64,000 nucleotides of DNA from a virus (IMGVR_UViG_3300020450_001133), one strand, 5' to 3'. Positions 1 to 48,800 are shown, numbered from the stretch's first letter. Notes: generated by a model not told the origin, from the sequence alone. A program made the numbers and translations.

Positions 1-883
1 TGAGATTATAAGTTTGTGCTGTACCACTATTTTGTGTTAAATTTAATGTAGTTGGTTGTGTTCCATATAAAGTTATAGTGGCATTGTGAGCACCATTACC
101 TTTCTGTACTCCGCTTATTTGACTGCCATCTTGATAACTTTTATAGTTTACAGTTTTATTTCCGTCATTAATTTGTTTCCACCATATATCATTGTTATCA
201 GCATATATCCATATATTTGCAGTATGACTACCTGGTGTATTAGTATTACCATTTGTTTGATATCCTGCAATAACATTATTGTCTCCATGATAGTCTAAAA
301 TAACTTTGTGACCGCCATGTTCAGCACCATCACCTTCATTAAATGTTGTGTCATTGATATTGTTAAGTCCAACACCTTGACCCCATCTCATAAGATTGTT
401 GTCTCCCCAAACGTGAAAACCTGCTTCTGAATATACACAATTATTATCTTCTGTACATTTTTGTTTTATGTAAATGTCATTGTCAACACCATCTACGTCA
501 CCACAAAATGTTGCGTTTGGACAATTCACTTTACCCCATGTGCTAGTAAATCCAGCAAAATTCTTTTGTCCTTCTTGTGAAATTTTAACTAAATTACCAT
601 CACCTGACACGGAAAATTCTACATCATTGTCTTCACCTAACTGCCCAATCCACATTGTTAAATTATCAACATTACCATATGTTAATCCTAAATCTAAATC
701 AATGTGTTGTCCTTTACCATCTTGTAAAATAGTTAATTCTAAGTTGTCACCTACTTGGTCAATATGAACGTGATTGTGTTCTTCTCCTCCCCAAGCATCG
801 TTGGCAATTAGTAGGCCCATACCTAAAAGTAAACCGCCTATTAACCAGTTACCAATCCTATTATTTAATTTTGACTCTTTCAT
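1..883 (-). CDS. Curlin-repeat-like secreted protein, 3' end outside the window (absent from the ORF track)
   Basis: Hand translation from ATG at 883, which overlaps the upstream stop as TAATG: MKESKLNNRIGNWLIGGLLLGMGLLIANDAWGGEEHNHVHIDQVGDNLELTILQDGKGQHID... The frame stays open to base 1. It has a signal-peptide-like N-terminus and repeated Q-x-G-x-x-N / GDNN motifs. Confidence 0.75.
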   Translation of the reverse strand, partial: MKESKLNNRIGNWLIGGLLLGMGLLIANDAWGGEEHNHVHIDQVGDNLELTILQDGKGQHIDLDLGLTYGNVDNLTMWIGQLGEDNDVEFSVSGDGNLVKISQEGQKNFAGFTSTWGKVNCPNATFCGDVDGVDNDIYIKQKCTEDNNCVYSEAGFHVWGDNNLMRWGQGVGLNNINDTTFNEGDGAEHGGHKVILDYHGDNNVIAGYQTNGNTNTPGSHTANIWIYADNNDIWWKQINDGNKTVNYKSYQDGSQISGVQKGNGAHNATITLYGTQPTTLNLTQNSGTAQTYNL

Positions 884-2085
884 TAATCTACCTGTATAAT
901 TGTAATAAATGTACCTTCGCAATCATTTAAACATATTGTGGCATCTTTTAAATTACTATCTTCTACAAATATTTGGGCACTATTACCTGAATTAATTCTA
1001 ACACTTACTGTATTTGTTACCTGTCTAAAAAAGAATAATTTACCATCTTCTAAGACTGTGTTAAATTGTGTTTCAGGGTCAAACCCTATTGCAGTACCTG
1101 TAATTTTATCTGCGGCTAATCTACCTTCAGATTCGCTACCACTTTCTGCTTTATCTTCTCCTACACTTACTTCTTCTATTTCTTCAAGTAAGTCTTGTAA
1201 AAAATCAACATCTAGAAAATTTATATCTAGTGTTGTAAATTCTAAATCTTCTGTTGTGTCTGCTAACACATCTGCTTCAATGGCATTAGCATCTAATCCA
1301 TCAAAGTCTAAAAGTCCAGCATCACCTTTTGCTTCTTCTTGTTGTTCCTCAACTGCTTCTTTAATTTCAGTTGGTTCACTTACAATAAACATGTTATCAA
1401 TCATGTCTAAATTCAAGTCCGCAAGTAAAACAGGATTTGTTGGAGCCTGTTCTAATGTACTAACCATAACAGCCTGAAAGGCTTCAGTTAATACTTGTTG
1501 ACCACCATCATTTGTAATTGTTATACTACCTGACGGTCTGCAACCTTCTTCTAACTTTACTGTATCTGTACAGCCTGAGTCTGGTAATAATATTACTAGA
1601 CTTCTTCCTAACTCATCAACAGTAGTTGTAAAGTCAGTACCCCTGATACCAATTGTGGCTGTAGGAGTTTGTACGACTATATTTTCCTTAGGTACCAATC
1701 CTAATCCACCAGTGGCAAAACGTGCCGTTCCTTGCACAAAATCTAATGCCATCCTGCTTTTACTTGGATCAGGATCGTACACATATTCATTAATAACCAT
1801 ATATGTGTGTTCAGTTAAACTTACCTGTGTATCATCGACAAATTTTAATTTTAAACGACCATTAATCGTTTCAACTTCGTCCATGCTCTGTATGTCTGTG
1901 TCTAGTTCTGCAATCAATTTTTCACCAGACGTTCTATTAATACTACCGGGTGAGCCAACTTGCTCAAATACTCCGCCGATACTTTCAATGGCACCGGCGG
2001 AAATACTATATGTTGCACTAAACAACAAAAATGCATATAAACAAACTTTAGTCAGTCTGTCTAATTGAAACTGAAGCATTTTCAC
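883..2085 (-). CDS. FecR-domain secreted protein with acidic linker
   Basis: N-terminal hydrophobic signal; FecR-like core (DTQVSLTEHT...FVQGTARF...VQTPTATIGIRGTDF); long D/E-rich segment. True start may be slightly downstream. Confidence 0.75.
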   Translation of the reverse strand: MKMLQFQLDRLTKVCLYAFLLFSATYSISAGAIESIGGVFEQVGSPGSINRTSGEKLIAELDTDIQSMDEVETINGRLKLKFVDDTQVSLTEHTYMVINEYVYDPDPSKSRMALDFVQGTARFATGGLGLVPKENIVVQTPTATIGIRGTDFTTTVDELGRSLVILLPDSGCTDTVKLEEGCRPSGSITITNDGGQQVLTEAFQAVMVSTLEQAPTNPVLLADLNLDMIDNMFIVSEPTEIKEAVEEQQEEAKGDAGLLDFDGLDANAIEADVLADTTEDLEFTTLDINFLDVDFLQDLLEEIEEVSVGEDKAESGSESEGRLAADKITGTAIGFDPETQFNTVLEDGKLFFFRQVTNTVSVRINSGNSAQIFVEDSNLKDATICLNDCEGTFITIIQVD

Positions 2086-2878
2086 TGTCTAAATCAACGT
2101 CTATTTTACCAGTACAGGCAGGAGTACACGATGCCGCATTACTTTGTAGGAATTGGAAATCACCATCTGAACCTACTAAAACAAATTTTAAGTAATGGTT
2201 AGAGTTACCTGTTTGGTTAGATGTGATAGCATTATCATCACCTGTGATATTCATTTCCCAAGTTGCGGAACCGGCGTCAACTTTTATACCACTTTGTGAA
2301 AAAGCGGATGTATTGTTCCAGTCAGAACCAGGAGTACCACTCCATGCTTTTGAGTTGGAAACAGCACTTCTAAAGTCGTTCCTGTCACCTAGTATTGTCA
2401 AATCCATATTAAGGTTGTCTGCGGCATAGTTACCACCAATATCTACATCAAAAATGTTAGTATCACCTTGAACATTCCAAAGCATATCAACATTATCTGC
2501 ACTACCAGTTGCACCTATGTTTAAATCTAATGAATTAGAATCTCCTAAAAAGTAGAAATCCCATACTGTTGATCCAGAACCGTCTCCAGTCCATGCACCA
2601 AATATTTCATTAGCATCACCGTCTTGAATGATATCAATAATCAAGTTAGATCCTGTAATAACTAAATCGCTACCATCAGAAGCATCACCTGATATTTTGT
2701 TACCAGCACCAGCCTGTAATATGGTCAAAGTTAAATTGTCCCCTTGTTGGTCTAATAAAACTTCGTTGTCGTCAGCACCTAAGGCAGGAGCAAATAATCC
2801 TACTGTTAGGCCCATAACTGCGAAGACATTGATTGCAAAATTCTTAAACAAATTTTTAGTCTTCATCCTTATCTCCAT
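2048..2878 (-). CDS. Curlin-repeat-like secreted protein (CsgA/CsgB-like candidate)
   Basis: Signal peptide, then about 7 imperfect repeats ending in (Q/L/T)-G-D-x-N (DQQGDNL, IIQDGDAN, FLGDSN, VQGDTN, ILGDRN, ITGDDN); lies directly downstream of csgG. Confidence 0.65.
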   Translation of the reverse strand: MEIRMKTKNLFKNFAINVFAVMGLTVGLFAPALGADDNEVLLDQQGDNLTLTILQAGAGNKISGDASDGSDLVITGSNLIIDIIQDGDANEIFGAWTGDGSGSTVWDFYFLGDSNSLDLNIGATGSADNVDMLWNVQGDTNIFDVDIGGNYAADNLNMDLTILGDRNDFRSAVSNSKAWSGTPGSDWNNTSAFSQSGIKVDAGSATWEMNITGDDNAITSNQTGNSNHYLKFVLVGSDGDFQFLQSNAASCTPACTGKIDVDLDSENASVSIRQTD

Positions 2879-3836
2879 TATTCTTTAGGAGCATTTTCTC
2901 CCAAAGTTTCTTATCGGCTTTAAGATCCTTTTCGTCAATGTCAACTTGCATCCATGTTGCGTTTTCACCTTCAACTAATTCTTGAACGTCCCAACCCTCA
3001 GGATATACAATTTTCCAATAACCTCTCTCATCGCCTTGTTGTATTAATGCCAATACTGCGGCTTCAATAGCCGAACGTACTGCCCATGTAACACTTTCGT
3101 TCTCTGTCATACCACTTTCTAACTCTAGAAGTTTTGTGTCCATATCTAAAAATCTAAACACATCGCCTCCAATACCTGTACTCAAAATGGTTTTGTATGT
3201 CTGTACGTTGAGTAACACTTCGCCAGTGAGTGTGCTTACGGCTCTCAGTGATACAACAACACTATCTCTTCGATATTGGTTTGTTGTCCCAATACCTAGA
3301 TATCTTGCACCATTACCTCCAGTTTCAACATTAGTGTCGTATCCAATGATACCACCTTCTAATATCATACCTGCAAACAATAGTGGTTGGACTCCTTCTG
3401 CTGGTTTTTCTTCAGTGGCAAACTGTTCACGAGTACTTCGAACAATTTGTCTTTCCCTCACAAGGTTGTCTAGTCCTAAACCTCTTTCTACAACTCTAAA
3501 CCACGTGCCTTTAGGATCATCCTTGGCACCTGCGGCTTTTAATGAGTCAATTAATAAATCTTTTGCACCCTGCGTAACTGCGGTGCTGAAACTTGCAACT
3601 CCGTCTGAACTCACTCTTTGTCCAGTTAAGTCATCAAATTTATAAACTGCAACCACTGGCATAACTTCTGCCGGTGGCAAATTTCTTAGTTTCTTATATG
3701 TTGGTAATTCTACGAATTTAGGCTCTTCGATACATTCCAATAATGATGTATTGCAGACTTTGTCGCCAGGTATGGAAATGCTGGCGCATCCGCTAATTAG
3801 CAAAGCAAATAATACTGCTATTATTCCATTTTTCAA
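2856..3836 (-). CDS. csgG: CsgG-family curli secretion channel lipoprotein
   Basis: TTG start and lipobox LISGC. CsgG motifs VAVYKFDDLTGQR, FSTAVTQGA, WFRVVERGLGLDNLVRERQIVR, LEGGIIGYDTN, GGNGARYLGIG, QYRRDSVVVSLRAVS. Confidence 0.93.
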   Translation of the reverse strand: MKNGIIAVLFALLISGCASISIPGDKVCNTSLLECIEEPKFVELPTYKKLRNLPPAEVMPVVAVYKFDDLTGQRVSSDGVASFSTAVTQGAKDLLIDSLKAAGAKDDPKGTWFRVVERGLGLDNLVRERQIVRSTREQFATEEKPAEGVQPLLFAGMILEGGIIGYDTNVETGGNGARYLGIGTTNQYRRDSVVVSLRAVSTLTGEVLLNVQTYKTILSTGIGGDVFRFLDMDTKLLELESGMTENESVTWAVRSAIEAAVLALIQQGDERGYWKIVYPEGWDVQELVEGENATWMQVDIDEKDLKADKKLWEKMLLKNNGDKDED

Positions 3837-3839
3837 CTT

Positions 3840-4340
3840 TTACCCGCCTAATGTTCCAATTCCGATAGGTATTTCTATTTCTGTTACTGTTCCATCTGCG
3901 TCTATAATAGTTAATTGAATATACTCAATTCCATCTATTGTAATTACCTGGTATGAGACGTTACTGTCTTCAATAGTAAATGCACCTTCGGTAGAATTGG
4001 TACAAGTTGGTACTTCTGCAGGATTACAAAACATACTATCTACTAATCCTTTAGAAATCTGACTGTAAATTCTGCTTTCCAAATTTCTAATAAACTTATT
4101 AATAGTGCTGTTTGATTCTGCTCTTTCAGCCGCTCTTAAAGCCGCTTCTATATCATCTCTAATTTTATCTTTTCTGCTCTTTTCTTGATTTTCAATTGTC
4201 AAATAATGAGCACCGGTTCCTATTCCACTAAAACTTGGGTTCTTAAACTTATGTGTTAGTTTGTCAGCGAAAACCGTTTGTGATGCAAAAAATGCCAACA
4301 TTACGCCAATTCCTAAAATTCTTCCTGTAATTTTATTCAT
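3840..4340 (-). CDS. csgF: CsgF-family curli assembly protein
   Basis: Signal peptide, then ADKLTHKFKNPSFSG (CsgF N-terminal F-x-N-P-x-F-x-G motif), FIRNLESRIYSQIS, and a C-terminal IIDADGTVTEIEIP; adjacent to csgG. Confidence 0.85.
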   Translation of the reverse strand: MNKITGRILGIGVMLAFFASQTVFADKLTHKFKNPSFSGIGTGAHYLTIENQEKSRKDKIRDDIEAALRAAERAESNSTINKFIRNLESRIYSQISKGLVDSMFCNPAEVPTCTNSTEGAFTIEDSNVSYQVITIDGIEYIQLTIIDADGTVTEIEIPIGIGTLGG

Positions 4341-4639
4341 TTTTTCTTTTTTATAGCCTCTTCTTTTTCAGCAAGGGCCTCCTTTTCCTCCGCGTCTTGG
4401 AGGACTTCTTGTCGTGCTCTATATTCTAGCACAACATCTACTTTTTGTTGCAAACGAATCAAGTCTTGATCCAACATTCTTGTTTGGTCTATGACTCTTA
4501 TAAGAGCCATATGCATTTTGCCTAATGCAGGTTTTATTTCTGTGTTAATGTATTTCCATACATAAAAAATGAAATATCCTAACCCTACACAGGCTACAAC
4601 TGGAAAGCCATATTGGGAAACTAATGCCGCAACGTCCAT
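4337..4639 (-). CDS. Small single-pass membrane protein, YvrJ-like
   Basis: GFPVVACVGLGYFIFYVW transmembrane segment followed by a heptad-rich helix; paralogous to the neighbouring gene; coupled by overlapping stop and start codons. Confidence 0.6.
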   Translation of the reverse strand: MDVAALVSQYGFPVVACVGLGYFIFYVWKYINTEIKPALGKMHMALIRVIDQTRMLDQDLIRLQQKVDVVLEYRARQEVLQDAEEKEALAEKEEAIKKKK

Positions 4640-4941
4640 TAATCTCTCCTAACGTCGAGTTTACCATCCTCAATAAAGTTTTCCGCTCTGGCAACTCGTT
4701 CTATATCAGGTCTTAATTCCAACGCACTACTGACTAACATATCGATTTTAATCATCTCGTTACTCATAGTTCTTGCTCTATTTTCTAAGGATTCGCAAAA
4801 CTTTGTCAAAGTTTGTACCTGACCGACGACGCCAGCCATTAGTTGTTTAATAATAATAAAGATAAATGCTCCCATTACCAATGCTCCGGCAATAGGGAAT
4901 CCTACCTCTGCTATTAATTGAAATACTTCGTTCATCTGCAC
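4639..4941 (-). CDS. Small single-pass membrane protein, YvrJ-like (first gene of the operon)
   Basis: EVGFPIAGALVMGAFIFIIIKQL transmembrane segment followed by a coiled-coil-like region. Confidence 0.6.
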   Translation of the reverse strand: MQMNEVFQLIAEVGFPIAGALVMGAFIFIIIKQLMAGVVGQVQTLTKFCESLENRARTMSNEMIKIDMLVSSALELRPDIERVARAENFIEDGKLDVRRD

Positions 4942-5021
4942 ACTCTGTCTTTTTATCTTTCATTTGTAGTGTGTACTTTTTGTGTTACTTCCTACAAATA
5001 GGATCTACAGTCCTACGCAGT

Positions 5022-5029
5022 TATTTATC
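5022..5029 (-). promoter_or_regulatory. Late-promoter motif GATAAATA upstream of the curli-like operon
   Basis: TATTTATC on the + strand; one base different from the T4 late consensus TATAAATA; the 15-mer GAAAAGTGATAAATA is identical to the one upstream of the portal gene. Confidence 0.7.
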
Positions 5030-5069
5030 ACTTTTCTTGGCAAAGATTTTGATATAGACTAATCTATTT

Positions 5070-5077
5070 GATAAATA
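5070..5077 (+). promoter_or_regulatory. Late-promoter motif GATAAATA, divergent, upstream of the small ORF 5191..5313
   Basis: Exact motif in the intergenic region. Confidence 0.5.
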
Positions 5078-5082
5078 AATGC

Positions 5083-5101
5083 TGTAACATGATTGTAACA
5101 T
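5083..5101. promoter_or_regulatory. Direct repeat TGTAACAT-N3-TGTAACAT (11-bp period)
   Basis: Two exact 8-mers at 5083-5090 and 5094-5101; the spacing matches OmpR/PhoB-family binding sites. Confidence 0.35.
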
Positions 5102-5190
5102 AACGTTGCAGAACATTTTTGTAGACCCCAATAGGGCTGATACAATAACAACGTATATGGGAAAATCGGTTACTTCAATCGGAGAAAAAA

Positions 5191-5313
5191 ATGGCGAAAT
5201 CCTTAGGAATAGTAGCCAATGCAACTCAACGTTTTGCTTTGGACTACTTTAAAAAATTTGATACGATGATGAAAGCCGGCTCTATAGATAGAGTTATTGC
5301 TGAATCATTTTAG
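5191..5313 (+). CDS. 40-aa small protein (below the ORF-track cutoff)
   Basis: GGAG ribosome-binding site at 5181-5184 and ATG at 5191; MAKSLGIVANATQRFALDYFKKFDTMMKAGSIDRVIAESF; stop lies just before a bidirectional terminator. Confidence 0.65.
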   Translation: MAKSLGIVANATQRFALDYFKKFDTMMKAGSIDRVIAESF

Positions 5314-5318
5314 CAGTC

Positions 5319-5348
5319 AAAAAAAAGCACCCGGAAGGGTGCTTTTTT
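5319..5348. terminator. Bidirectional intrinsic terminator
   Basis: A8-GCACCC-GGAA-GGGTGC-T6 between the convergent genes 5191..5313(+) and 5362..8394(-). Confidence 0.9.
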
Positions 5349-5361
5349 AAATTTGTTTTTA

Positions 5362-8300
5362 TTACATCATATTTACTAATACTTCAATAACACCTTCGCC
5401 ACTGTCTATCTCACCAATTGCTTTACCAATTATTCTTCCTGGACCTGCGTTATTGTCTGCTTTAGCATGACCTTTAACACTAGAAGCAACCATTAAGTCA
5501 CCCTTAGCAACTGGACCAACTACTTTACAAGGAACCCTTCCTGTTAAAGCAACATATTGTCCTTCTGCGTCTGCGTTCATCATGTATGCTGGATCTGTAC
5601 TAACAACTCCTGCGACTCTGTGGTCTAATTCTTCTTCACATGCTGTAACTTCTGCTTCGCCGCCAAATACAAGAACTGTACCTGCTTCGTATTCTGCATC
5701 ACTTTCGTATTTCTCAGCCAAATCCGCATATCTTGCCGCTGTTGCTGTACCTACAAAGAATGAAGCATGTACGTTAGCACTTGTTGTAACATTACCTGTC
5801 ATGTTTACCATTGAACCAGTGTATGCTGTTATTCTTGCATCTGCTCTACCATTTGTGTAATATAAGTTACTTGAACCTTCTGATAAGTTATCAGTGTCAA
5901 ATGCACCCATATTTACAGCAACGTCATCAGCATTTACAGTAATACCTGTACCTGCTCCAATGTTTAATGTAACTGCACCTGAAGTGCCGCCACCTGTTAA
6001 ACCTGATCCTGCTGTAACACCTTCAATGTCACCTGCGTCATTTGTGAAACTAATTACACCAGTTGAACTGTTATAACTTAGGTCTCCACTGGCACTAATT
6101 GCCGCTCTTGCTCTTGCAGTTGTGTGGAATAAGTTTGTTGATCCTTCAGTAATATCATCTGAATCTCCACTTAGTTCACTAAGTGCATCTGCTGTGTCAA
6201 CTTGTGCATCAACGTATGCTTTTACTGATTGCTGTGAAGGAACATGAGTTGCACTATTAGATGCCATATTATCTTCATCTTTAATAGCCGCTTGTACTCT
6301 TGCATCTGCTCTAGCATTTGTGTAGTATAAGTTACTTCCTTCTGAAAGGTCACCTGTATCTGCCGCCGCTAGTTTTGTATCAAATCTACCATCTGCTCTT
6401 GCGTTAGTAAAGTAAAGTGCATCGCCTTCATCTATATCAGTTGTTGTTAGTGCTTCTGAAATAACTATTGTGCCTGCACCGTCATTATAAGTTACACTTA
6501 AATTACCTGTAGCAGACATAATAGCACCAACTCTATCGTCTACTCTTTCGTTTGTAAAGTATAAGTTACTTGAACCTTCTGTAATTTCGTCTGTATTGTC
6601 TTTTGTTGCAAGTTGAGCCGCCACAAAAGCCTTAACTGATTGCTGTGATGGTACATGTGTAGCACTATCACTTGTCATATCATCTTCGTCTTTAATTGCG
6701 TTTGCAATTCTGGCATCTGCTCTTGCGTTAGTAAAGTAAAGGTTAGTTGAACCTTCTGCTAAATCATCTGTATCAGTTGCTAGTGGATAATATGTTGATC
6801 CATCGTTTGTGAATTGCCATACATCTGAAGTTTCGTTCCATTGTAAAAATACATCTGAACTACTTCCTCTGTTTACTTGTAAACCTGCATTCTCACTTGG
6901 AGTACCACTGGCATCTCTGTTCAATTCAATAATATTGTCTGCCAAACTTGCTGTTGTTGTATTAATAATGGTTTGTGTACCATTAACTGTTAAATTTCCT
7001 GTAACGACAACGTCATTACTAAATGTTTTATCTCCGCCAACAGTTTGTGCTCCTGAAGTTACAACAACTGTACTGTCTACAGAAAGTGCTCCACTTGATG
7101 CACTTAAACCAGTACCAGCAAATGCTGTTGCCAAGTCTGCTATGCTTTCTTTTTTGGAACTGTTGTCACTAGCATCAATAATTGCTATGCTGTCTGCACT
7201 TACATCTACTGTCGCGGCTGATAATTCGTTAAGGTCTAGTGCTAATGAAACTGCACCACTTGAACCACCACCTGAAAGTCCATCGCCGGCTGTAACACTT
7301 TCTATGTCACCTGCGTCATTTGTAAATGATATTACACCAGTTGATGAATTATAACTTAAATCTCCACCGGCACTAATTGCCGCTCTGGCTCTTGCAGTTG
7401 TGTGGAATAAGTTTGTTGAGCCTTCTGTGATATCATCTGAATCACCACTTAATTCGCTTAATGCATCTTTTGTGGCTACTTGGGCATCAACGTATGCCTT
7501 TGATGCCGCATCTTGTGCCGCAACTGGATCTGTTACGTTGTTAATATGATTACTGTTCAAGTTGATGTTTGACCCCATTGTCAAACCACCTGTACCTGTT
7601 AATACTTGTCCACTATCTACTGTAATACCTGATTGTAAATTAATTACACCAGTACCACTTGCGTTTAATTCTATGTCACCTGAACCTGAAGTAACAATTC
7701 CTACGTTTTGGTTTGCGTTTGCACTAAATTGGATAGTACCTGAACTGTCACTTAATACTTGTTGTCCATTAACGTATAATGATCCTGGACCAATATATAC
7801 GTCTTTCCATACACTTGTTGCACTACCTAGTGAATGTGTATTGTTAGCCGCTGGTTCTAAGTTTGCTCCGAAACCTGTTCCACCTGCTGTTTTATCAAAA
7901 AATGCATCGTTTACTGCTAAACTAACTGCACCTGAACTACCACCGCCGGATAAACCATTACCTGCTGTAACGGCACTAATGTCACCTGTTTCTGAAATGC
8001 TTAATTGTCCTGAACTTGCTGATAAACCTGATCCTGCTATTGCACTTACAAAGTCTGCAATAGACTCTTTCTTACTTGAATTATCTCCTGCATCGATAAT
8101 TGCTATGCTGTCTGCATCTACGGCTACTGTTGCCGCTGTTAATTCGTTTAAGTCTAAGGCTAAACTAACTGCTCCAGAAGTACCTCCGCCGGATAGTCCA
8201 TCACCTGCTGTTACACCTGTAATGTCTCCTGCTTCTAATTCTGAAAATTTCGCTAGCCTGTGTCCACCTGCTGTTGAACCATCGTGGACTCTTATGGTAT

Positions 8301-8394
8301 CTAAATCTGTATCAACGGTAATCTCACCTACTAGTCCTGTGAATGAACTGTGTTGGCTAGTTGTACCTCTTCTCCATTGGATTGCTGTTGCCAT
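5362..8394 (-). CDS. Virion fibre/adhesin with Mtd_N-like N-terminus and C-terminal intramolecular chaperone (peptidase G2-like) domain
   Basis: N-terminus AIQWRRGTTSQHSSFTGLVGEITVDTD; many internal repeats (VTAGxGLSGGGxSG, DLxEGSxNLYxTxARA); C-terminus ARYADLAEKY...GVVSTDPAYMMN...VALTGRVPCKV. Confidence 0.8.
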   Translation of the reverse strand: MATAIQWRRGTTSQHSSFTGLVGEITVDTDLDTIRVHDGSTAGGHRLAKFSELEAGDITGVTAGDGLSGGGTSGAVSLALDLNELTAATVAVDADSIAIIDAGDNSSKKESIADFVSAIAGSGLSASSGQLSISETGDISAVTAGNGLSGGGSSGAVSLAVNDAFFDKTAGGTGFGANLEPAANNTHSLGSATSVWKDVYIGPGSLYVNGQQVLSDSSGTIQFSANANQNVGIVTSGSGDIELNASGTGVINLQSGITVDSGQVLTGTGGLTMGSNINLNSNHINNVTDPVAAQDAASKAYVDAQVATKDALSELSGDSDDITEGSTNLFHTTARARAAISAGGDLSYNSSTGVISFTNDAGDIESVTAGDGLSGGGSSGAVSLALDLNELSAATVDVSADSIAIIDASDNSSKKESIADLATAFAGTGLSASSGALSVDSTVVVTSGAQTVGGDKTFSNDVVVTGNLTVNGTQTIINTTTASLADNIIELNRDASGTPSENAGLQVNRGSSSDVFLQWNETSDVWQFTNDGSTYYPLATDTDDLAEGSTNLYFTNARADARIANAIKDEDDMTSDSATHVPSQQSVKAFVAAQLATKDNTDEITEGSSNLYFTNERVDDRVGAIMSATGNLSVTYNDGAGTIVISEALTTTDIDEGDALYFTNARADGRFDTKLAAADTGDLSEGSNLYYTNARADARVQAAIKDEDNMASNSATHVPSQQSVKAYVDAQVDTADALSELSGDSDDITEGSTNLFHTTARARAAISASGDLSYNSSTGVISFTNDAGDIEGVTAGSGLTGGGTSGAVTLNIGAGTGITVNADDVAVNMGAFDTDNLSEGSSNLYYTNGRADARITAYTGSMVNMTGNVTTSANVHASFFVGTATAARYADLAEKYESDAEYEAGTVLVFGGEAEVTACEEELDHRVAGVVSTDPAYMMNADAEGQYVALTGRVPCKVVGPVAKGDLMVASSVKGHAKADNNAGPGRIIGKAIGEIDSGEGVIEVLVNMM
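6022..7468 (-). repeat. Intragenic duplication of about 165 nt (about 6022-6190 and about 7301-7468)
   Basis: Both copies encode LSELSGDSDDITEGSTNLFHTTARARAAISA(S/G)GDLSYNSSTGVISFTNDAGDIE; related copies occur in the next gene at about 9090-9190 and 9390-9500. Boundaries approximate. Confidence 0.85.
7105..8225 (-). repeat. Second intragenic duplication (about 7105-7300 and about 8030-8225)
   Basis: Both copies encode VTAGDGLSGGGxSGAVSLALDLNELxAATVxVxADSIAIIDAxDNSSKKESIAD. Boundaries approximate. Confidence 0.8.
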
Positions 8395-8484
8395 TGTTGT
8401 CTCTTCCTATATAGTTTGTCTACATTTATTGTAGTCTATACTCACGTCTGAGCATAGTCAAAAGGATTACCTTTTATATAAGAG

Positions 8485-8492
8485 TATTTATC
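8485..8492 (-). promoter_or_regulatory. Late-promoter motif GATAAATA
   Basis: TATTTATC in the gap upstream of the 8394 start. Confidence 0.7.
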
Positions 8493-8497
8493 TAGAT

Positions 8498-11400
8498 TTA
8501 CTTAATTAAGGCTTCTACAACACCGGAACTGGTTGTTAGGTTTTCGCTTATTGCTACACCTATTGCACTTGCACCAGCATGGTATCCATTGAATGGAGCC
8601 GCTTGAGCATGTCCTGGAGTATTACTTGCAATCAGTACATCACCTTTTCTAACAGCACCTACAACTTTAACAGGAACACGACCTTTAAGTGCAACTGCTA
8701 CTACATTGTCGCCTTCTAATGCTGAGTTCATTAAGTGTGCTGGTTCTGTACTAACAACACCTGCTATTGCTGGACTGTTTTGTTTTGTTACTTCTGTAAC
8801 TTCAGCACTTCCGCCTATAACAAGAACTGTACCAGGCTCATAAGGTTTGTCTGCCAAATAGTTCTCAGCCAAGTCAGCATATTGAGCCGATGTTGCTGTT
8901 GCTGTTATAACATTTGCCGCAAAGTTACCTGAGCCATCTCTAACTACGGCTCTGTTTGCAAAGTTACCAGTTGTAAATATTGTTGTGTCTGATAAGTCAA
9001 CTGCTACATCATCTGCGTTAGCAGTAATACCATCGCCACCTATAACATTTAGTGTAACTGCTCCTGAATTTCCACCACCTGTCATACCTGAACCAGCAGT
9101 AACACTTTCTATATCACCTGCATCGTTAGTGAAACTAATTACACCTGTTGAACTGTTATAACTTATGTCGCCACTTGCACTAAACAATCCACGTATTTGT
9201 GCATCGGATCTTTCTGTAAAGGATAATACACCTGTTCCACTATTATAAGAAAGGTCACCACTTGTACTAATTAATCCTCTAACATCTGAATTTGCAAGTT
9301 CTATATCGTTTGCATTTACAGTAATACCATATCCGCCTACTGCATTAAGAGTAACTGCACCTGAAGAACCACCTCCAGTTAAACCTGCTCCTGCAGTAAC
9401 ACTTTCTATATCACCTGCATCATTTGTAAAAGATATAACACCTGTTGAACTATTATAACTTAGGTCTCCACTTACACTAATTGCACTTCTGGCTCTAGCA
9501 TTTGTGAAGTATTGATTTGTACCTTCTGCTAAATCGCTTGTGCTTGTTGGTACTGGGAAATATGTACTTCCATCATTTGTGAACTGCCATATATCTGAAC
9601 CTTCATTGTATCTAAATAATACATTTGTAGATGTTCCTCTTTCAACTTCGATACCTGCGTTTTGTGATGGTGTACCTGATTCATTATTGTTAAGAATAAT
9701 TATATTATCATCTACTGTTAAAGTTTCAGTATTTAAAATTGTTTGTGTTCCGTTTACAGTAATATTACCAGAGAATATTGCGTCATCACTAAATGTTTTA
9801 CCACCTGCAATAGTTTGTGCGCCAGTTGTTCTTACAACTGTATTGTCTACATCAATAGTACCACTACTAAAGTCTATACCATCACCGCCTGAAATGTATG
9901 ACTCTACTCTGGCATTTGTAAAGTATAAGTTATCGCCTTCTGTAATATCTGTTGTGGTTAATGCTTCGCTAACTGTGATAGTGTCTGCGGCATCATCATA
10001 TGTTACACTAATGTTACCTGAACCAGACATAATTGAACCAATTTTATCTGCCGCTCTTTCATCTGTATAATATAAATTTGTGCCTTCTGCTAAATCACTT
10101 GTTGTTTTACTTGCTAATGATAGGTTACCTGCTGTAACTCCAAGTAATTCTGAATCAACGTATGCTTTAATACTTTGTTGAGTTGCGGCATGAGTCGCAC
10201 TATCTGACGCCATGTTGTCTTCATCTTTGAAGTCTATTGCAATATCATTTGCATTAACTGTCATACCTGTACCAGCAACAACATTTAGTGTTACATCGCC
10301 TGATGTACCACCACCTGTTAGACCAGCACCTGAAACAACACCAGTTACATCACCTGTTAAGTCATTGTCAATTACAAATGTTCCTGCGGCATCATCATAT
10401 GTTACAGTTATGTTTGAACCACCTGATACTAATACATTTACTCTATCATCTACTGCTTCAGCAAAGTCGCTAACCTGAGATGCTGTAATGTTTATTGAAG
10501 TGTTTGCCGCACCAGTTATTTGTCCTTGTGCGTTAATAGTTAATGCAGGAACTTTATTAGCATCGCCATATACACCTGCTGTAACACCTGTGTTAGTGAT
10601 TGCTATGTCATTTGCGTTAGCAGTGATACCTGTTCCGCCAACTACATCTAAAGTAACGTCTCCTGAAGAACCGCCTCCAGTTAAACCTGCTCCTGCAGTT
10701 ACACCTGTAACGTCACCTATATTATCTGCATCAATTGTGAGTGTGCCAGCCGCATCGTTATAAGTTGCGGTTATGTTTGCGCCTCCTACTATTAATGCAC
10801 CTACTCTATCATCTACACGTTCGTCTGTGTAGAATAAATTTGTTCCTTCTGTAATATGATCCGATGTACTCGGAACACTAATTACACCTGTACCGCTGTT
10901 GTATCCTTGGCTTCCTGCACTTACACTAAACAGACCTCTAATGTCTGCGTTACTTGTTTCTATTACTGCTACATTGGCAGTTGTGTTAGCAATTCTGCTA
11001 ACTGTAATTCCGTAATTACCTTTTAATCCTGCTGGGAAGAAAGTACTTCCTGCTTGAGTCATTAAGTTGGCATCTGATCCAACGTCTGCACTACCTAAAT
11101 CGATTGTGTTTACTGTTGCGTCAACTAATGTTTTAACAACACCTGCTTCAACACCTTTAAATTGATTTGAAGCAACATCATAAAAAATTGTTCCGTTTGC
11201 GTGGAATGTATCACTTGCTTTATTACCTATTGTGATAGCACCATCAACTGTTAATCTTTCAATTAAGGCATCACCTGCCGAAGTTGATGTACTTGTTACA
11301 GTGAAAACATCTGCACCTGCATTAGAAGTAACAGTTTGTCCACTGATATATGTTGCAATATCTCCACCTACAAATAGTACTGAATCTTCAAATGTTACCC

Positions 11401-13609
11401 TACTTGCTCTAGGTTCTGCAATCGTAATTGTGTTTGCACTTACTAATGCGTTTACAGTTCCATTAAAACTGTCTGCATTTCTAGTTGATACATCACTGCT
11501 GTGAGCAAACATAAACAAGTTTGCACTTGCAATACCAAATCCTGAACCTGTACCACCAAAGAATGTTGGTGTGTCTGGAGTGCCTTTATGGAATACAGTT
11601 GTTACAGCCGAACTCCATAACTGTCCTGCACCTACGTTTGCATCTGGTAAGAAAGAAACATTACTAAAGAAGTTTACGTCACCTGAACCTAATCTTGAAC
11701 CTTGCTGATTTGTGTGTACACTATCACCGGCTTCATTTGCTCTTCTACCTTGACTGAAACTGGTAGTACCTGTAAATGTGATGTTACCATCTCTCTTCTG
11801 GAAGTCTCCTGTTGGGTTAGGATCAGTAAAGTTGTTCAAAGAAGCATTTGCAGTTGTTGTTGTACCATTAAATGAACTAGGTACTGTAAAAGTATTGTTG
11901 TCTACTTTTGTTACTGTAAATGTTCCATGTGCATTTGAATCACCCATATTGCTAATGGTGACTGTGTCTCCATCAATTAATCTGTGACCAGTTGCTGTGA
12001 CTGTTGATGTACTACCATTACCAACCATGTTGCCAGTAATTTTACCACTGACTTGTTGTTGTCCTTGAAGTAATACTGCAAATCCATCATCATCATATGT
12101 TTGAGTTTGCAAATAAATGTTTGCAAGTCCTTGATGTTGGAAAGATATAACTTGTGAATTTGAACTAGCATTACCACCTAATGATGATGAATTACTATCT
12201 ACAACAGAACCGTTTGCTAATTTAACACGTGGTAAAATACTACCATCTGTTTCTATTGTGAATGTTTTATCTACTTTATTGTTATCTGTATAACTTTTTA
12301 AATTAGTATTAGCAGTTACAATATTGGCTTCCGCCGCGGCAACTGATGCCACTAAAGTATTTGCAACTGTTGTATTGTTGTTTAATGAATCTGTTATTTC
12401 TCTTAAAGTATCTAACTGCGATGGTGCACCGCCAATTAAATCTGTTAATTCTGTTTGCACATAAGCCGTTGTAGCAATCTTTGTACTATTATCATTTGCG
12501 GATTGTGTTTTTGCGACAGCATCTATTCCTGTCATATCAACATTACCTGAGAACACATAATCTGCAGTTAGTGTATCATTTCTATCTGTTGTAACAACAT
12601 CGGCTGTTACATCTATAACACCATTTGCTTCTGTAACGTATGTGCCACTTGTAATATATGTGCTTATGTTTGCATTAAAGTCTGAAACTTGGTCAGATGT
12701 AATTACAATTTGAACTGTGTTAGCATCTGTTAATTGACCTTGTTGATTTACAACAAATGAACTTACCTTACTTGCATTACCACCATAAGCACCTGCTGTA
12801 ACGGCTGTATCATCTATATCGATTGTTCCGCTTGTTTCTGTTAATCCTGTTCCGCCTGTTATATAAGAACTAATGGCGGCATTAAAGTCTGTAACTTGCG
12901 AGTGGGGTATAGCAATCATTACAGAGTTTGCATCTATTAATCTACCTTTTGAGTCTACATTGTATGTTGCAACTGCTGTGGCATTTCCTTGAGCACCAGC
13001 ACTTACAGTAGTATCTACTAAATCTATTGTAATGTCTGAACCGTCATCTGTTCCTTGACTTGCAACAATAATGTTACTGTTGCTTAAACCTTGTGCTGAT
13101 TTAACGTATGCACCTTGTGTATGATAATCTAATATTACTGCATTTGCATTTATGTTTGCCGCAAAACTGTCAGTAAAAGGACCTTCAAAACTTACACTAC
13201 CTGTAAGGTCTCCGTCTAATGTTAAGTTTACATTGCCTGTGAATTTTTGTGCTGAAGTGGCAATACCTACAAAGTAAGGACCAGTAACATTTCCTGTTGT
13301 TGTTAATGTTCCTTCAATATTTGAGTTTGCATTTAATAAAATATTATTGGTATTTGTTGCATCACCAATAGTCAAGTTTGCACTATTATAACTTATTCTT
13401 GCGTTGCTTGTCTGTGAGTTTAATTGTAGATAAGAACTATCAACATCGCTGTCACTATTAATCACATAGCCGTCAGCATCATTAACTGTGACTGTGTCGT
13501 TTAAAAATGTAGTGGTACCATATCCTAGAATATTACCACGGACCGTTAAATTTCCTTGTATGTCAAGGTTTCCGTCTGGTCTGAAATTCGATTTGTTGTT
13601 TGTTGCCAT
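8498..13609 (-). CDS. Large virion fibre protein with C-terminal intramolecular chaperone (peptidase G2-like) domain
   Basis: 1703 aa; shares repeat modules and the C-terminal AQYADLAENY...VALKGRVPVKV domain with 5362..8394; contains a beta-rich module GNGSTSTVTATGHRLIDGDTVTISN. Confidence 0.8.
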   Translation of the reverse strand: MATNNKSNFRPDGNLDIQGNLTVRGNILGYGTTTFLNDTVTVNDADGYVINSDSDVDSSYLQLNSQTSNARISYNSANLTIGDATNTNNILLNANSNIEGTLTTTGNVTGPYFVGIATSAQKFTGNVNLTLDGDLTGSVSFEGPFTDSFAANINANAVILDYHTQGAYVKSAQGLSNSNIIVASQGTDDGSDITIDLVDTTVSAGAQGNATAVATYNVDSKGRLIDANSVMIAIPHSQVTDFNAAISSYITGGTGLTETSGTIDIDDTAVTAGAYGGNASKVSSFVVNQQGQLTDANTVQIVITSDQVSDFNANISTYITSGTYVTEANGVIDVTADVVTTDRNDTLTADYVFSGNVDMTGIDAVAKTQSANDNSTKIATTAYVQTELTDLIGGAPSQLDTLREITDSLNNNTTVANTLVASVAAAEANIVTANTNLKSYTDNNKVDKTFTIETDGSILPRVKLANGSVVDSNSSSLGGNASSNSQVISFQHQGLANIYLQTQTYDDDGFAVLLQGQQQVSGKITGNMVGNGSTSTVTATGHRLIDGDTVTISNMGDSNAHGTFTVTKVDNNTFTVPSSFNGTTTTANASLNNFTDPNPTGDFQKRDGNITFTGTTSFSQGRRANEAGDSVHTNQQGSRLGSGDVNFFSNVSFLPDANVGAGQLWSSAVTTVFHKGTPDTPTFFGGTGSGFGIASANLFMFAHSSDVSTRNADSFNGTVNALVSANTITIAEPRASRVTFEDSVLFVGGDIATYISGQTVTSNAGADVFTVTSTSTSAGDALIERLTVDGAITIGNKASDTFHANGTIFYDVASNQFKGVEAGVVKTLVDATVNTIDLGSADVGSDANLMTQAGSTFFPAGLKGNYGITVSRIANTTANVAVIETSNADIRGLFSVSAGSQGYNSGTGVISVPSTSDHITEGTNLFYTDERVDDRVGALIVGGANITATYNDAAGTLTIDADNIGDVTGVTAGAGLTGGGSSGDVTLDVVGGTGITANANDIAITNTGVTAGVYGDANKVPALTINAQGQITGAANTSINITASQVSDFAEAVDDRVNVLVSGGSNITVTYDDAAGTFVIDNDLTGDVTGVVSGAGLTGGGTSGDVTLNVVAGTGMTVNANDIAIDFKDEDNMASDSATHAATQQSIKAYVDSELLGVTAGNLSLASKTTSDLAEGTNLYYTDERAADKIGSIMSGSGNISVTYDDAADTITVSEALTTTDITEGDNLYFTNARVESYISGGDGIDFSSGTIDVDNTVVRTTGAQTIAGGKTFSDDAIFSGNITVNGTQTILNTETLTVDDNIIILNNNESGTPSQNAGIEVERGTSTNVLFRYNEGSDIWQFTNDGSTYFPVPTSTSDLAEGTNQYFTNARARSAISVSGDLSYNSSTGVISFTNDAGDIESVTAGAGLTGGGSSGAVTLNAVGGYGITVNANDIELANSDVRGLISTSGDLSYNSGTGVLSFTERSDAQIRGLFSASGDISYNSSTGVISFTNDAGDIESVTAGSGMTGGGNSGAVTLNVIGGDGITANADDVAVDLSDTTIFTTGNFANRAVVRDGSGNFAANVITATATSAQYADLAENYLADKPYEPGTVLVIGGSAEVTEVTKQNSPAIAGVVSTEPAHLMNSALEGDNVVAVALKGRVPVKVVGAVRKGDVLIASNTPGHAQAAPFNGYHAGASAIGVAISENLTTSSGVVEALIK

Positions 13610-45803: not shown

Positions 45804-48800
45804 ATGGCTGACGATAAGCAATATAGTAAATTACCTGCTAACCAACAAACAACAGCAGTCAAAAACTTTTTTGAAAGCACCGTTGAACAGTTGTTTAGTA
45901 AAGCAAATATTGAACAAGTTTCAGGATTTGTTGGTAGAAAAGAATACGAACAGTTTGAACCTACAGACCGTTATGTCAGTCAGCCTACCAGCGGAAGAAA
46001 CTTTTACAGTTTTGAACCAGTAGTAAGTTCAGTAAATCAAATAAGTGGTAGAAGTGAAAACAATGTTTTCTTTGATGACTTTGCTAACATATTAGAAAGT
46101 TATGGTGCAGATACATCAAAACAAAATGTACTTTTTGATTCAGAATTTTACAGTTTCTTACCACCAATTAACATTGACAAATTTATAAACTTCCAAGAAT
46201 ATTTTTGGAGTCCTACGGGCCCTACACCTAAAACTATAGAAGGTACAGTAACAAATCCAATTAATATTGAAAAAGATATTTTAGGAAAGAAAAGTTATAC
46301 AGCACCTGACGGAACAGTATTTAAAAATGGTATGATAGTAACCTTTACAGGAAACTATGCAATACCTTTATCATATCAAGACGACCAACGTTGGATCATA
46401 GAAGGCGTTGGTGAAAGTATTATATTATTCAACAGAGACCAAAACTTTGCAACTACATTTGCAACAGAATTGAATATACCTTTTGACAATACATTAATTA
46501 CCAGTACAGATGAATTAGTAAGCACACCTGGTACTAGCATGTTAAGTGGTGGTCTTATTGGATTAGCGGATCCGGATGGCACTACAATCACAGACTCTAA
46601 CAAGTTTACAGATTATGATGGATATGTTTTACATTATAATGATAGGTATGCACCAGGCGGAAGAACTCCAGCAGTTGGTTATGTTAGTATGTCACAAGTT
46701 GATCCTGATTCAGGACAGCCTTTATGGGCAGGTTACATTACACCAATTGGAACATCACTACAATATGTTGTAGGAGGTTCGGGTGCATTCGATACGCAAC
46801 CTTTTGACAGTGATAATACTCAAACAGTTCCAGACTATATTATGATGCAACGTGGAGCAAAAGATAATAATGTATGGAGTAGAATTAATTTTTGGTATCA
46901 TAGACAAAACTTTTTGGACGTTGGTGACCAACTCCCAGCCAAAAGTGCTAGAGCAACAAGACCTATTTTAGAATTTGATAGAGACCTTGAACTATATAAC
47001 TTTGGTAAATTGGGTGTTGATTCAGTTGAAATATCTTCTTATGATACAACATACTCAGAAGTAGACGGAAGACCTACTAACGGAGTTGTAGATTCTGTTA
47101 CATTAAGAAGTGGTAATAAAATTTTGTTCCCATCAGAAGAACAAAATGTTAGCCAATACATATATCAAGTAGAAAGTAGCACAGAAGCAACTGTTTTTGC
47201 AGACGTAACTAGTTCAACAAATATAACTTTAACATCTACAAATGATGATATAAAAGTTGGTGCAGTTGTTAGTGAGCCAGGAAATAGTTTAAACAATATT
47301 ACAGTAGCAAGTATTAGTGGTACAGCACTTGTTGTTAATTCAGCAATTAGTATTACTGCAGGTACAGTATTAAGTTTTGATGATAGAGTAATTTTAAAAA
47401 GAAAACCAGCAAGTACAAATCCTGCAGGAGCAGTTGATGGTGATGCAAACTTTGTACCATATACACCTACAACAGGTGATGTAGTCAGTATTAAGTTTGG
47501 TGCTAATAAGCAAGGTGTAGAATATTACTGGAGTGGTACTGCATGGTTAGAAGGACAAAAGAAAAATAAAGTTAATACTCCAATACTATTTAATGCTTAC
47601 GATGTAAACAAAAAAGCATTAGACAATGAAGCAGTATATCCAAACAGTATGTTTATAGGAAATAAAATTTTCTCATACAAAGAAGATAATACAATTGGTG
47701 CTACAAGAGACACCGTATTGGATATGGCATTGTCATATAGAAACTTTAATAACTTTAGTGAAATAGTTTTTGTAAACAATTTAGATGATGACTTAGTGTC
47801 ATATAAAGCATTTGGGTCTACGCAAGATTCATTTGTAAAAGGTTATGTGTATTACAAACGTATATTACCAAACGGTGATTCAGAATATTGTACTACTTGG
47901 AAAACACATTCAACAAAAGCAAGTCAAATTGTAAGAGACCAATATATTGTTAGTCAAAAAGATGTTGATGATGAGAGATTGCTTTGGAAAATTAGTGCAA
48001 AGCCAACTGACAATGCAAACAGCATTAGAGTTTATATAAATGATAAAAGGAACAAAACATTTAGTTTTGATCCTAATCAAACTGCAATTACATTTAGCAC
48101 ATTTACATTCAAACTAAATGACGTAATTGATATAGAAATAAAAACTACAGAAGGTAAAATTACTGCTGATGACAGATTCGGTCATTTTGAAGTTCCTGCT
48201 AGTTGGGTAAGCAATTATGAAAATGCAGACATTAAGGAAATATCACAACCACAATATTTAGAACATTTTAGAAACTTTGTTAAGAATCAAGAATTATTCA
48301 GTGGAGATCCATTAGGTTCTAACAACTTTGATAATTTAGAAAAAGACGAAACTTATGCAAACAGAATTATTCAAACAGATGATAGTTTGCAAATGGCATC
48401 TTGGCTAGTAAGTAATGAAAAATTTAATATCATAGATGCAATTAATTTTAATGCTAACGAATATGTAAAATATAAAGCAAGACTGAAATCAGAAATTAAA
48501 AGATACATAGATAACAATGACACATCTACTATGAGTAATAGTGAGATATTGGAATTTGTTTTACAAAATGTTATTGCATTTAATCCTGGTAAGTTAGTAT
48601 TCGATTACAGTTACATGTTAGCATTTGGTGACAAGTACACAGAAGAAAAAATTACAATTAACAATGTTGCCACTAAAAAATATACTCTAACAAATTACTT
48701 AGATTGTAATAATGTACAAAATACAATTTATGTTTATGACCAAGTAAACAATGTTGACACAATGTTACTTGTTGATAAAGATTACACTATAAACAGTCTA

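Follow-up and report, generated by a model that had tools for sequence, protein, structure and literature searches.

A curli-type (type VIII) secretion module with putative fiber subunits in a PA5oct-like marine jumbo myophage

Results

Operon organization

We examined a 64,000-nucleotide (nt) stretch of viral DNA (IMGVR_UViG_3300020450_001133; hereafter, the window) that begins with an operon related to the curli, or type VIII, secretion system (T8SS). Seven coupled open reading frames (ORFs) occupy positions 1–4941 of the minus strand, in the order tm1, tm2, CsgF, CsgG, cur1, a FecR-domain gene, and cur2. They are joined by overlaps of 1, 4, 11–23, about 32–38, and 1 nt and, besides these, by a single 3-nt gap. 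An earlier reading of the sequence (hereafter, the original prediction) had proposed these seven ORFs, and all of them were present on the minus strand where it had placed them. The operon continues past the window edge: compared with its counterpart of 301 amino acids (aa) in L015, an IMG/VR contig 96% identical to the window, cur2 is short of about 17 C-terminal residues. Directly after cur2, L015 encodes a 626-aa protein with CHASE2 and Guanylate_cyc domains, that is, a class III cyclase. Seven genes is therefore the correct count for the window, and eight for the operon as a whole as found in L015.

This gene order fits the pelagiphage-type viral T8SS module described previously (PMC9599517), with the cyclase included by way of L015. 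HTVC008M and Melnitz have the same order, as do 27 IMG/VR loci and 11 contigs that were assigned to metagenome-assembled genomes (MAGs). Among related loci, the ratio of nonsynonymous to synonymous substitution rates (dN/dS) was 0.04–0.20, indicating purifying selection on all seven genes. When positions 1–4941 were compared with L003, identity was mosaic (tm1 82%, tm2 70%, CsgF and CsgG 90–92%), which suggests recombination within the module.

Channel proteins and putative substrates

CsgG (2856–3836, minus strand; 326 aa) scored 160 bits against PF03783 (cut-off 20.8) and matched the E. coli CsgG structures with an E-value of 4e-44. The Cys of its lipobox, LISGC, is nearly invariant, and by homology the protein is predicted to be a lipoprotein that forms an outer-membrane channel. 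It carries an additional C-terminal tail of roughly 50 aa, and its NCBIfam score of 168 against an equivalog cut-off of 505 marks it as a homologue rather than an equivalog. In the alignment with E. coli CsgG, Phe is retained and Tyr and Asn are not at the three positions that we take to be the constriction-loop residues. CsgF (3840–4340, minus strand; 166 aa including a signal peptide) scored 45.5 bits against PF10614 (cut-off 25.8). Its mature N-terminus, DKLTHKFKNPSFSG (FKNPSFSG), aligned to FRNPNFGG of the E. coli CsgF chains 6L7A and 6LQH, and homology indicates that this F-x-N-P-x-F-x-G peptide would plug into the CsgG barrel. A Pfam search at E ≤ 1 found no CsgE match for any of the seven proteins that the operon encodes within the window, bearing out what the original prediction had said of CsgE.

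The two curlin-like genes lie on either side of the FecR-domain gene. cur2 (2–922, minus strand, open at the window edge; feature 1–883) is 83% identical to the 301-aa L015 protein and scored 25.2 bits against Curlin_rpt (PF07012), above the cut-off of 20.7; cur1 (2048–2878, minus strand; 276 aa) reached 18.1 bits, below that cut-off. Comparing the two families by hhalign (99.6%, E 5e-25) identified them as paralogues. An alignment of 33 cur1 homologues revealed invariant Q, G, and N residues with a period of about 25 residues, in a Q-x-G-x-x-N pattern. Reading the N-termini of CsgF, cur1, the FecR protein, and cur2 from sequence, we found that all four resemble Sec signal peptides. The suggestion that the operon includes two credible curlin-type substrates thus appears sound, cur2 being above the family cut-off and cur1 being its paralogue.

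Structure predictions lean toward this assignment, more clearly for cur2 than for cur1. The AlphaFold2 models of both proteins consist entirely of beta-strand pairs with a period of ~25 residues (cur1: predicted local distance difference test (pLDDT) 75, predicted template modeling score (pTM) 0.73; cur2: pLDDT 74, pTM 0.75). In an exhaustive structural comparison (VIA), the best match of the cur2 model was CsgA of Pontibacter korlensis, a curli subunit solved by cryo-electron microscopy (PDB 8C50; Z 19.1, with the second match at 14.7). The cur1 model also matched 8C50 best (Z 17.2), with SufD-type flattened beta-helices at 16.6 and 16.5. Superposed on 8C50, the two models showed 19–20% identity and a root-mean-square deviation of about 9 Å over 195–229 residues. 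At the profile level, the cur2 family matched the 8C50 sequence with an E-value of 5.8e-7; for the cur1 family, a search of PDB sequences returned 8C50 only at a non-significant E-value of 1.8. A non-solenoid fold, which the original prediction had named as evidence that would count against it, was not found: both models are beta-solenoids, and their best solved match is a CsgA. By homology, cur1 and cur2 are paralogues, and they model as two-sheet beta-solenoids related to the solved CsgA. Both are very acidic, with conserved C-terminal cysteine pairs and repeats longer than those of E. coli CsgA. The dN/dS values among related loci (0.10–0.16 for cur1) indicate that both curlin-like genes are kept by selection.

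We also observed that cur1, cur2, and the FecR protein share a C-terminal ending of the form hydrophobic-x-hydrophobic-x-Q-x-D (SIRQTD, ITITQD, and TIIQVD; 883–2878 in the window and 10954–11856 in L015). Comparing FecR with curlin by hhalign revealed no similarity that would account for this shared ending.

The FecR protein and the CHASE2 cyclase

The FecR-domain protein (883–2085, minus strand; 398–400 aa; PF04773, 38.7 bits; phrog_37870, 9e-65) is predicted to be secreted and consists of a FecR domain, an acidic linker, and a C-terminal domain. It lacks an anti-sigma N-terminus, and its partner is the CHASE2 cyclase, not a TonB receptor or an extracytoplasmic function (ECF) sigma factor. 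The cyclase gene lies 3' of the FecR gene, directly or past a gap, in most of the related loci that reach that far. A search of PDB sequences with the FecR profile gave no match, and in the genome-contig scan the FecR protein alone had no relatives. Complex prediction for the FecR protein and the CHASE2 domain returned a score of 0.00, which is evidence neither for nor against binding.

A secreted FecR protein adjoining a CHASE2 sensor is a known arrangement in Burkholderia and Pseudomonas (PMC5192318). Since these pairs and the bacterial operons described below show the same arrangement, we read the FecR protein and the CHASE2 cyclase as a putative periplasmic sensor unit. In the Burkholderia BiofilmReg operon and in P. 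aeruginosa, a signal-peptide FecR protein likewise lies beside a membrane sensor whose CHASE2 domain is periplasmic; however, that pair has a LysM domain and a histidine kinase output, whereas the phage pair has a class III cyclase and no LysM domain (PMC5192318).

The leading small membrane proteins

The operon is headed by two small membrane proteins, tm1 (4639–4941, minus strand; phrog_18771, 2e-25) and tm2 (4337–4639, minus strand; 100 aa; phrog_18771, 4e-26). The likelier start of tm1, judged from an alignment of relatives, is the ATG at 4935, giving 98 aa. The two proteins align with each other (alignment A3) and are paralogues of ~100 aa, each with one membrane segment and a coiled-coil-like C-terminal tail. 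For tm1, dN/dS was 0.05–0.06. The family is large, with 980 clusters at 50% identity.

The label “YvrJ-like” given to these proteins in the original prediction holds only as a weak contact: 6 of 24 family members touch YvrJ (PF12841), the best at E 0.014, and the window copies themselves have no Pfam match at E ≤ 1. YvrJ is also the nearest named Atlas cluster for the small proteins, at 0.87, below the 0.9 level required for more than a lead. A weak match to a holin family (phrog_4898) was seen for tm1 (7e-4) and for 5 of the 24 family members (best E 3e-5). The published label for this position, histidine kinase (“HK”; PMC9599517), was rejected, as neither Pfam nor NCBIfam gave a HisKA or HATPase_c match.

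The tm1–tm2 pair also occurs alone. In three phage contigs (L112, at 5723–6309, L113, and L114), no csg, FecR, or cyclase gene lies within 6 kb of it, and its neighbors there are genes for ClpS, HSP20, HSP70, and ribosomal protein S21. It seems best to regard the pair as a phage cassette of its own that heads the transcript, possibly holin-like in function, and not as dedicated secretion parts.

Upstream region and expression

A promoter-like motif, GATAAATA, lies at 5022–5029 on the minus strand, 87 nt upstream of the tm1 ATG at 4935. It occurs 11 times in the window against 4.7 expected, a count reached in 1 of 100 shuffles. All but one of these copies (10 of 11) are intergenic, 12–200 nt 5' of ORFs on the same strand, among them the portal gene, both giant fiber genes, and baseplate-region genes, and the ATAAATA core is unchanged across seven related upstream regions. 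The T4 late motif, TATAAATA, has a single copy in the window against 8.2 expected. The motif GATAAATAAC with one mismatch showed no enrichment, and the exact 8-mer test of GATAAATA replaced it. The motif that the original prediction called a late promoter is thus present and common to structural genes, in the form of GATAAATA and not of the T4 motif. Because GATAAATA also precedes virion structural genes, this shared promoter-like element points to late expression of the operon, short of proof.

Several further elements were observed in the upstream region. Directly before the tm1 start codon stands an invariant AGAGTGTGC. Two direct copies of ATGTTACA, 11 nt apart (5083–5101), lie between divergent GATAAATA motifs and are invariant in seven related loci; they could be an operator or an element of the 5' untranslated region. 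On the plus strand, a divergent 40-aa ORF (5191–5313) has its own GATAAATA at 5070–5077 and no Pfam match; seven related loci have kept its start codon, its ribosome-binding site, and its first nine codons (M-x-K-x-L-G-I-V-A). A hairpin terminator with a 12-pair stem and T/A runs on both sides (5321–5348, assigned to no strand) ends the upstream fiber gene and bounds the upstream region of the operon.

Contigs from four RNA libraries, belonging to three studies, lie on the operon, in line with its transcription during infection as originally proposed. The X14 contig spans 1885–3700 with four differences, and the others cover 2383–3249 (X16), 1627–2885 (X20), and 3889–5154 (X17). In X14, X16, and X20, summed contig depth was ~110–580 for the capsid gene, 28–76 for the deepest cur1/csgG contig, and about 0.3–5 for tm1/tm2, these values being contig averages unsuited to ranking genes. 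Such uneven depth argues for RNA rather than DNA carry-over.

Beyond the terminator, the minus strand encodes two giant fiber-like proteins (5362–13609; 1010 and 1703 aa) with Mtd_N and BppL_N domains and shared internal repeats. Some RNA-library contigs join both genes, probably through assembly cross-overs at the repeats.

The carrier phage

The major capsid protein encoded in the window is 70% identical to that of the Pseudomonas jumbo phage PA5oct and 62–63% identical to those of other jumbo phages (350–470 kb), and its portal protein is 53% identical to that of PA5oct. To HTVC008M and Melnitz, the capsid protein is only 39–40% identical. By these capsid and portal identities, a T4-like phage or pelagimyophage was ruled out. 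Seven IMG/VR contigs that share the module also carry the same capsid gene, at 87–99% identity, and for the syntenic contigs of 30–54 kb CheckV estimated a completeness of 10–14%. These marker proteins place the carrier among PA5oct-like marine jumbo myophages, not among T4-like pelagimyophages or HTVC023P-type podophages. The window contains no tRNA genes and so offers no host hint from them. We also observed a very long plus-strand ORF (45804–63998; at least 6065 aa) that is still open where the window ends; within its first 4999 aa, the only Pfam match is a YHYH domain at residues 1357–1529.

Phylogeny of CsgG

We compared the window CsgG with pelagiphage and bacterial copies in a phylogeny, as the original prediction had proposed. 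In this tree, rooted at the midpoint only and without a topology test, every module of the FecR/cyclase type falls in one clade (support 99/98), that of the window included. The window CsgG belongs to a 16-member subclade of IMG/VR loci (100/98) nested in the viral radiation, in which the HTVC008M and Melnitz sequences belong to the earliest-branching group. This topology is consistent with the jumbo lineage having taken up the block as a whole from other marine phages.

Bacterial counterparts

Profile searches over 80 bacterial csgG loci revealed chromosomal operons of the order csgF, csgG, curlin gene(s), FecR, and CHASE2 cyclase. We found them in a Henriciella MAG of the Hyphomonadaceae (L040, 6466–12489) and in two MAGs of the Caulobacteraceae (L039, 7513–13533, and L038). 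The Henriciella operon resides on a contig of 396 kb, with TonB receptors and metabolic genes as its neighbors. Partial versions of this order occur on two short contigs (L049 and L077) that were assigned to other MAGs. All of these bacterial operons, the partial ones included, lack tm1 and tm2, and most other Alphaproteobacteria have csgF, csgG, and curlin genes only. The FecR and cyclase genes are thus, by gene content, part of a bacterial operon type, which qualifies the published statement placing them outside bacterial T8SS operons (PMC9599517).

The Hyphomonadaceae and Caulobacteraceae operons have the same six genes as the phage module, in the same order and with CsgG in the same clade. 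They differ from it in lacking the tm pair, in the number and length of their curlins, and in their cellular context with ordinary bacterial flanks. Their CsgG sequences nest among viral ones, and transfer may have run in either direction.

The full viral module, tm pair included, was also observed in contigs filed under MAGs (L030–L037, L041, L042, and L054) that are labeled as Saprospirales, Sphingobacteriales, Flavobacteriales, Rhodobacterales, and Planctomycetaceae. The Sphingobacteriales MAG that holds L034 and L035, the sole MAG searched with the window capsid protein, also contains two T4-like capsid genes. For this reason, the MAG-filed module contigs appear to come from phages and to have been grouped with bacteria in binning.

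Discussion

We consider it probable that the window operon is the known viral type VIII secretion module, carried here by a PA5oct-like marine jumbo myophage and used for the late export of fibers. The module itself has been described before. A description of the operon was given by Zaragoza-Solas et al. (2020; PMC7029224), with whom the “sibling capture” proposal also originated, and Tominaga et al. (2020; PMC7198788) found csgA/G/F in a 180-kb T4-like genome with a predicted Bacteroidetes host. Wittmers et al. (2022; PMC9599517) reported the order HK(x1-2)-CsgF-CsgG-CsgA/B-FecR-CsgA/B-AC, without CsgE, in podo- and myo-pelagiphages, together with metatranscriptome expression, transfer between viral families, and the hypotheses of aggregation and superinfection exclusion. 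Buchholz et al. (2022; PMC9004378) argued for a lysis-related pore. In GenBank, the genomes of HTVC008M (a Pelagibacter phage) and Melnitz (a Methylophilales phage) already carry the annotations “curlin associated repeat protein,” “FecR domain protein,” and “adenylate/guanylate cyclase.” The amyloid-export reading, presented as new in the original prediction, had therefore been published, with its substrates, the missing CsgE, and aggregation all included (PMC9599517). Our literature search found no paper linking jumbo phages with curli or CsgG. What our analysis adds is the jumbo carrier, the structural and selection support for the subunits, the RNA-library coverage, the bacterial counterpart operon, the separable small-protein pair, and the promoter motif.

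Compared with the T8SS modules of pelagiphages and methylophages (HTVC008M, Melnitz, and the HTVC023P type), the jumbo phage operon has the same eight-gene order, a CsgG of the same clade (99/98), and likewise no CsgE. In HTVC008M and Melnitz, however, the module adjoins a gene for a single-stranded DNA-binding protein, whereas in the jumbo phage it lies beside tail-fiber and capsid genes, and the window CsgG is just 46–47% identical to the cultured phage copies. With the E. coli csgBAC/csgDEFG system, the phage operon shares homologous CsgG and CsgF and substrates that are likewise Sec-exported, Q/N/G-rich repeat proteins. It differs in lacking CsgE, CsgC, and CsgD, and its subunits are about twice as long (276–301 aa), acidic, and built of ~25-residue repeats with conserved cysteines.

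The favored reading can be laid out as a series of steps. The operon would be transcribed late, from the GATAAATA promoter common to virion structural genes. The curlin-like proteins would cross the inner membrane via Sec, exit through CsgG–CsgF, and polymerize into amyloid-like fibers on the infected cell, with cur1 as the likely major subunit. The FecR protein and the CHASE2 protein would work together as a sensor in the periplasm and set the levels of cyclic nucleoside monophosphate (cNMP). A more far-reaching version, which we put forward tentatively and at somewhat less than even chances, holds that the eight-gene block moved whole into a third, unrelated viral lineage of diverse marine jumbo myophages, where it became fixed beside, and expressed with, capsid and fiber genes. 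Infected cells would then build amyloid under a periplasmic sensor that writes cNMP, with cur1 as the major and cur2 as the minor or nucleating subunit.

Several observations weigh against fiber export. By hhalign, the resemblance to E. coli CsgA is weak (22–30%), and in NCBIfam cur2 scored 30.5 and 22.2 bits against the CsgB and CsgA equivalog cut-offs of 165 and 160, with no CsgA or CsgB match for cur1. Besides falling under the Pfam cut-off, cur1 has a structural match to CsgA that is tied with SufD-type helices, and a Foldseek search with its model against the PDB and the Swiss-Prot AlphaFold database returned insignificant beta-helix matches only. The RNA contigs may include DNA carry-over, and Melnitz-infected cells showed no clumping (PMC9004378). 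In addition, the outer-membrane context of CsgG is assumed, and amyloid export, polymerization, and ecological effects are inferred.

Two alternatives deserve consideration beside fiber export, both of them unlikely in our judgment. In one, the CsgG–CsgF pore has taken on a new role as a gated pore of the envelope and helps to time or execute lysis, with tm1 and tm2 as holin and antiholin and the solenoids as accessory or unrelated proteins. This pinholin/secretin idea has been published (PMC9004378), and it could draw on the weak holin-family matches of tm1 and tm2 and on the late type of the promoter motif. Yet the curlin-like pair, the FecR protein, and the cyclase have been retained alongside the pore in T4-like phages and in the jumbo lineage, and in podophages according to the literature, and all of them show purifying selection. 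Moreover, the same six genes without tm1 and tm2 form chromosomal operons, where there is no lysis, and the tm pair is found apart from any CsgG.

The other alternative, to which we assign a similarly low probability, is that the beta-solenoids are secreted but form a non-amyloid adhesin or coat anchored at CsgF, which masks receptors (superinfection exclusion) instead of growing into long fibers. For the cur1 fold, generic beta-helix adhesins are almost as good a match as CsgA, and the acidity, conserved cysteine pairs, and long repeats of both proteins would suit such a coat, as would the lack of clumping with Melnitz (PMC9004378). Against it stand the significant similarity of the cur2 family profile to a solved curli fibril subunit and the invariant Q/N ladder positions. 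A third proposal, that CsgG, ungated for want of CsgE, is a nutrient or cofactor uptake or leak path with the FecR-like protein sensing iron or a ligand (PMC7029224, PMC9599517), agrees with the lack of a CsgE match among the operon proteins but appears very improbable, as it leaves the CsgF cap and two conserved beta-solenoid proteins unexplained and does not suit a secreted FecR protein that lacks an anti-sigma N-terminus and is partnered by a CHASE2 cyclase instead of a TonB receptor or ECF sigma factor.

The question of phage-encoded fibers has been in print since 2020–2022 and was not opened by this window, which rather narrows it. The module extends beyond pelagiphages; the two putative subunits, each modeled as a CsgA-like solenoid, are subject to purifying selection; the small membrane proteins at the head of the operon can be separated from the curli module; and the FecR/cyclase pair can be assigned to an ancestral bacterial operon type. 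Should the fibers prove real, three unrelated lineages of abundant ocean phages would equip their hosts with an amyloid structure at the surface, one that is absent from the hosts studied so far (SAR11 and OM43). This could influence how cells aggregate and particles form, as well as superinfection and gene exchange.

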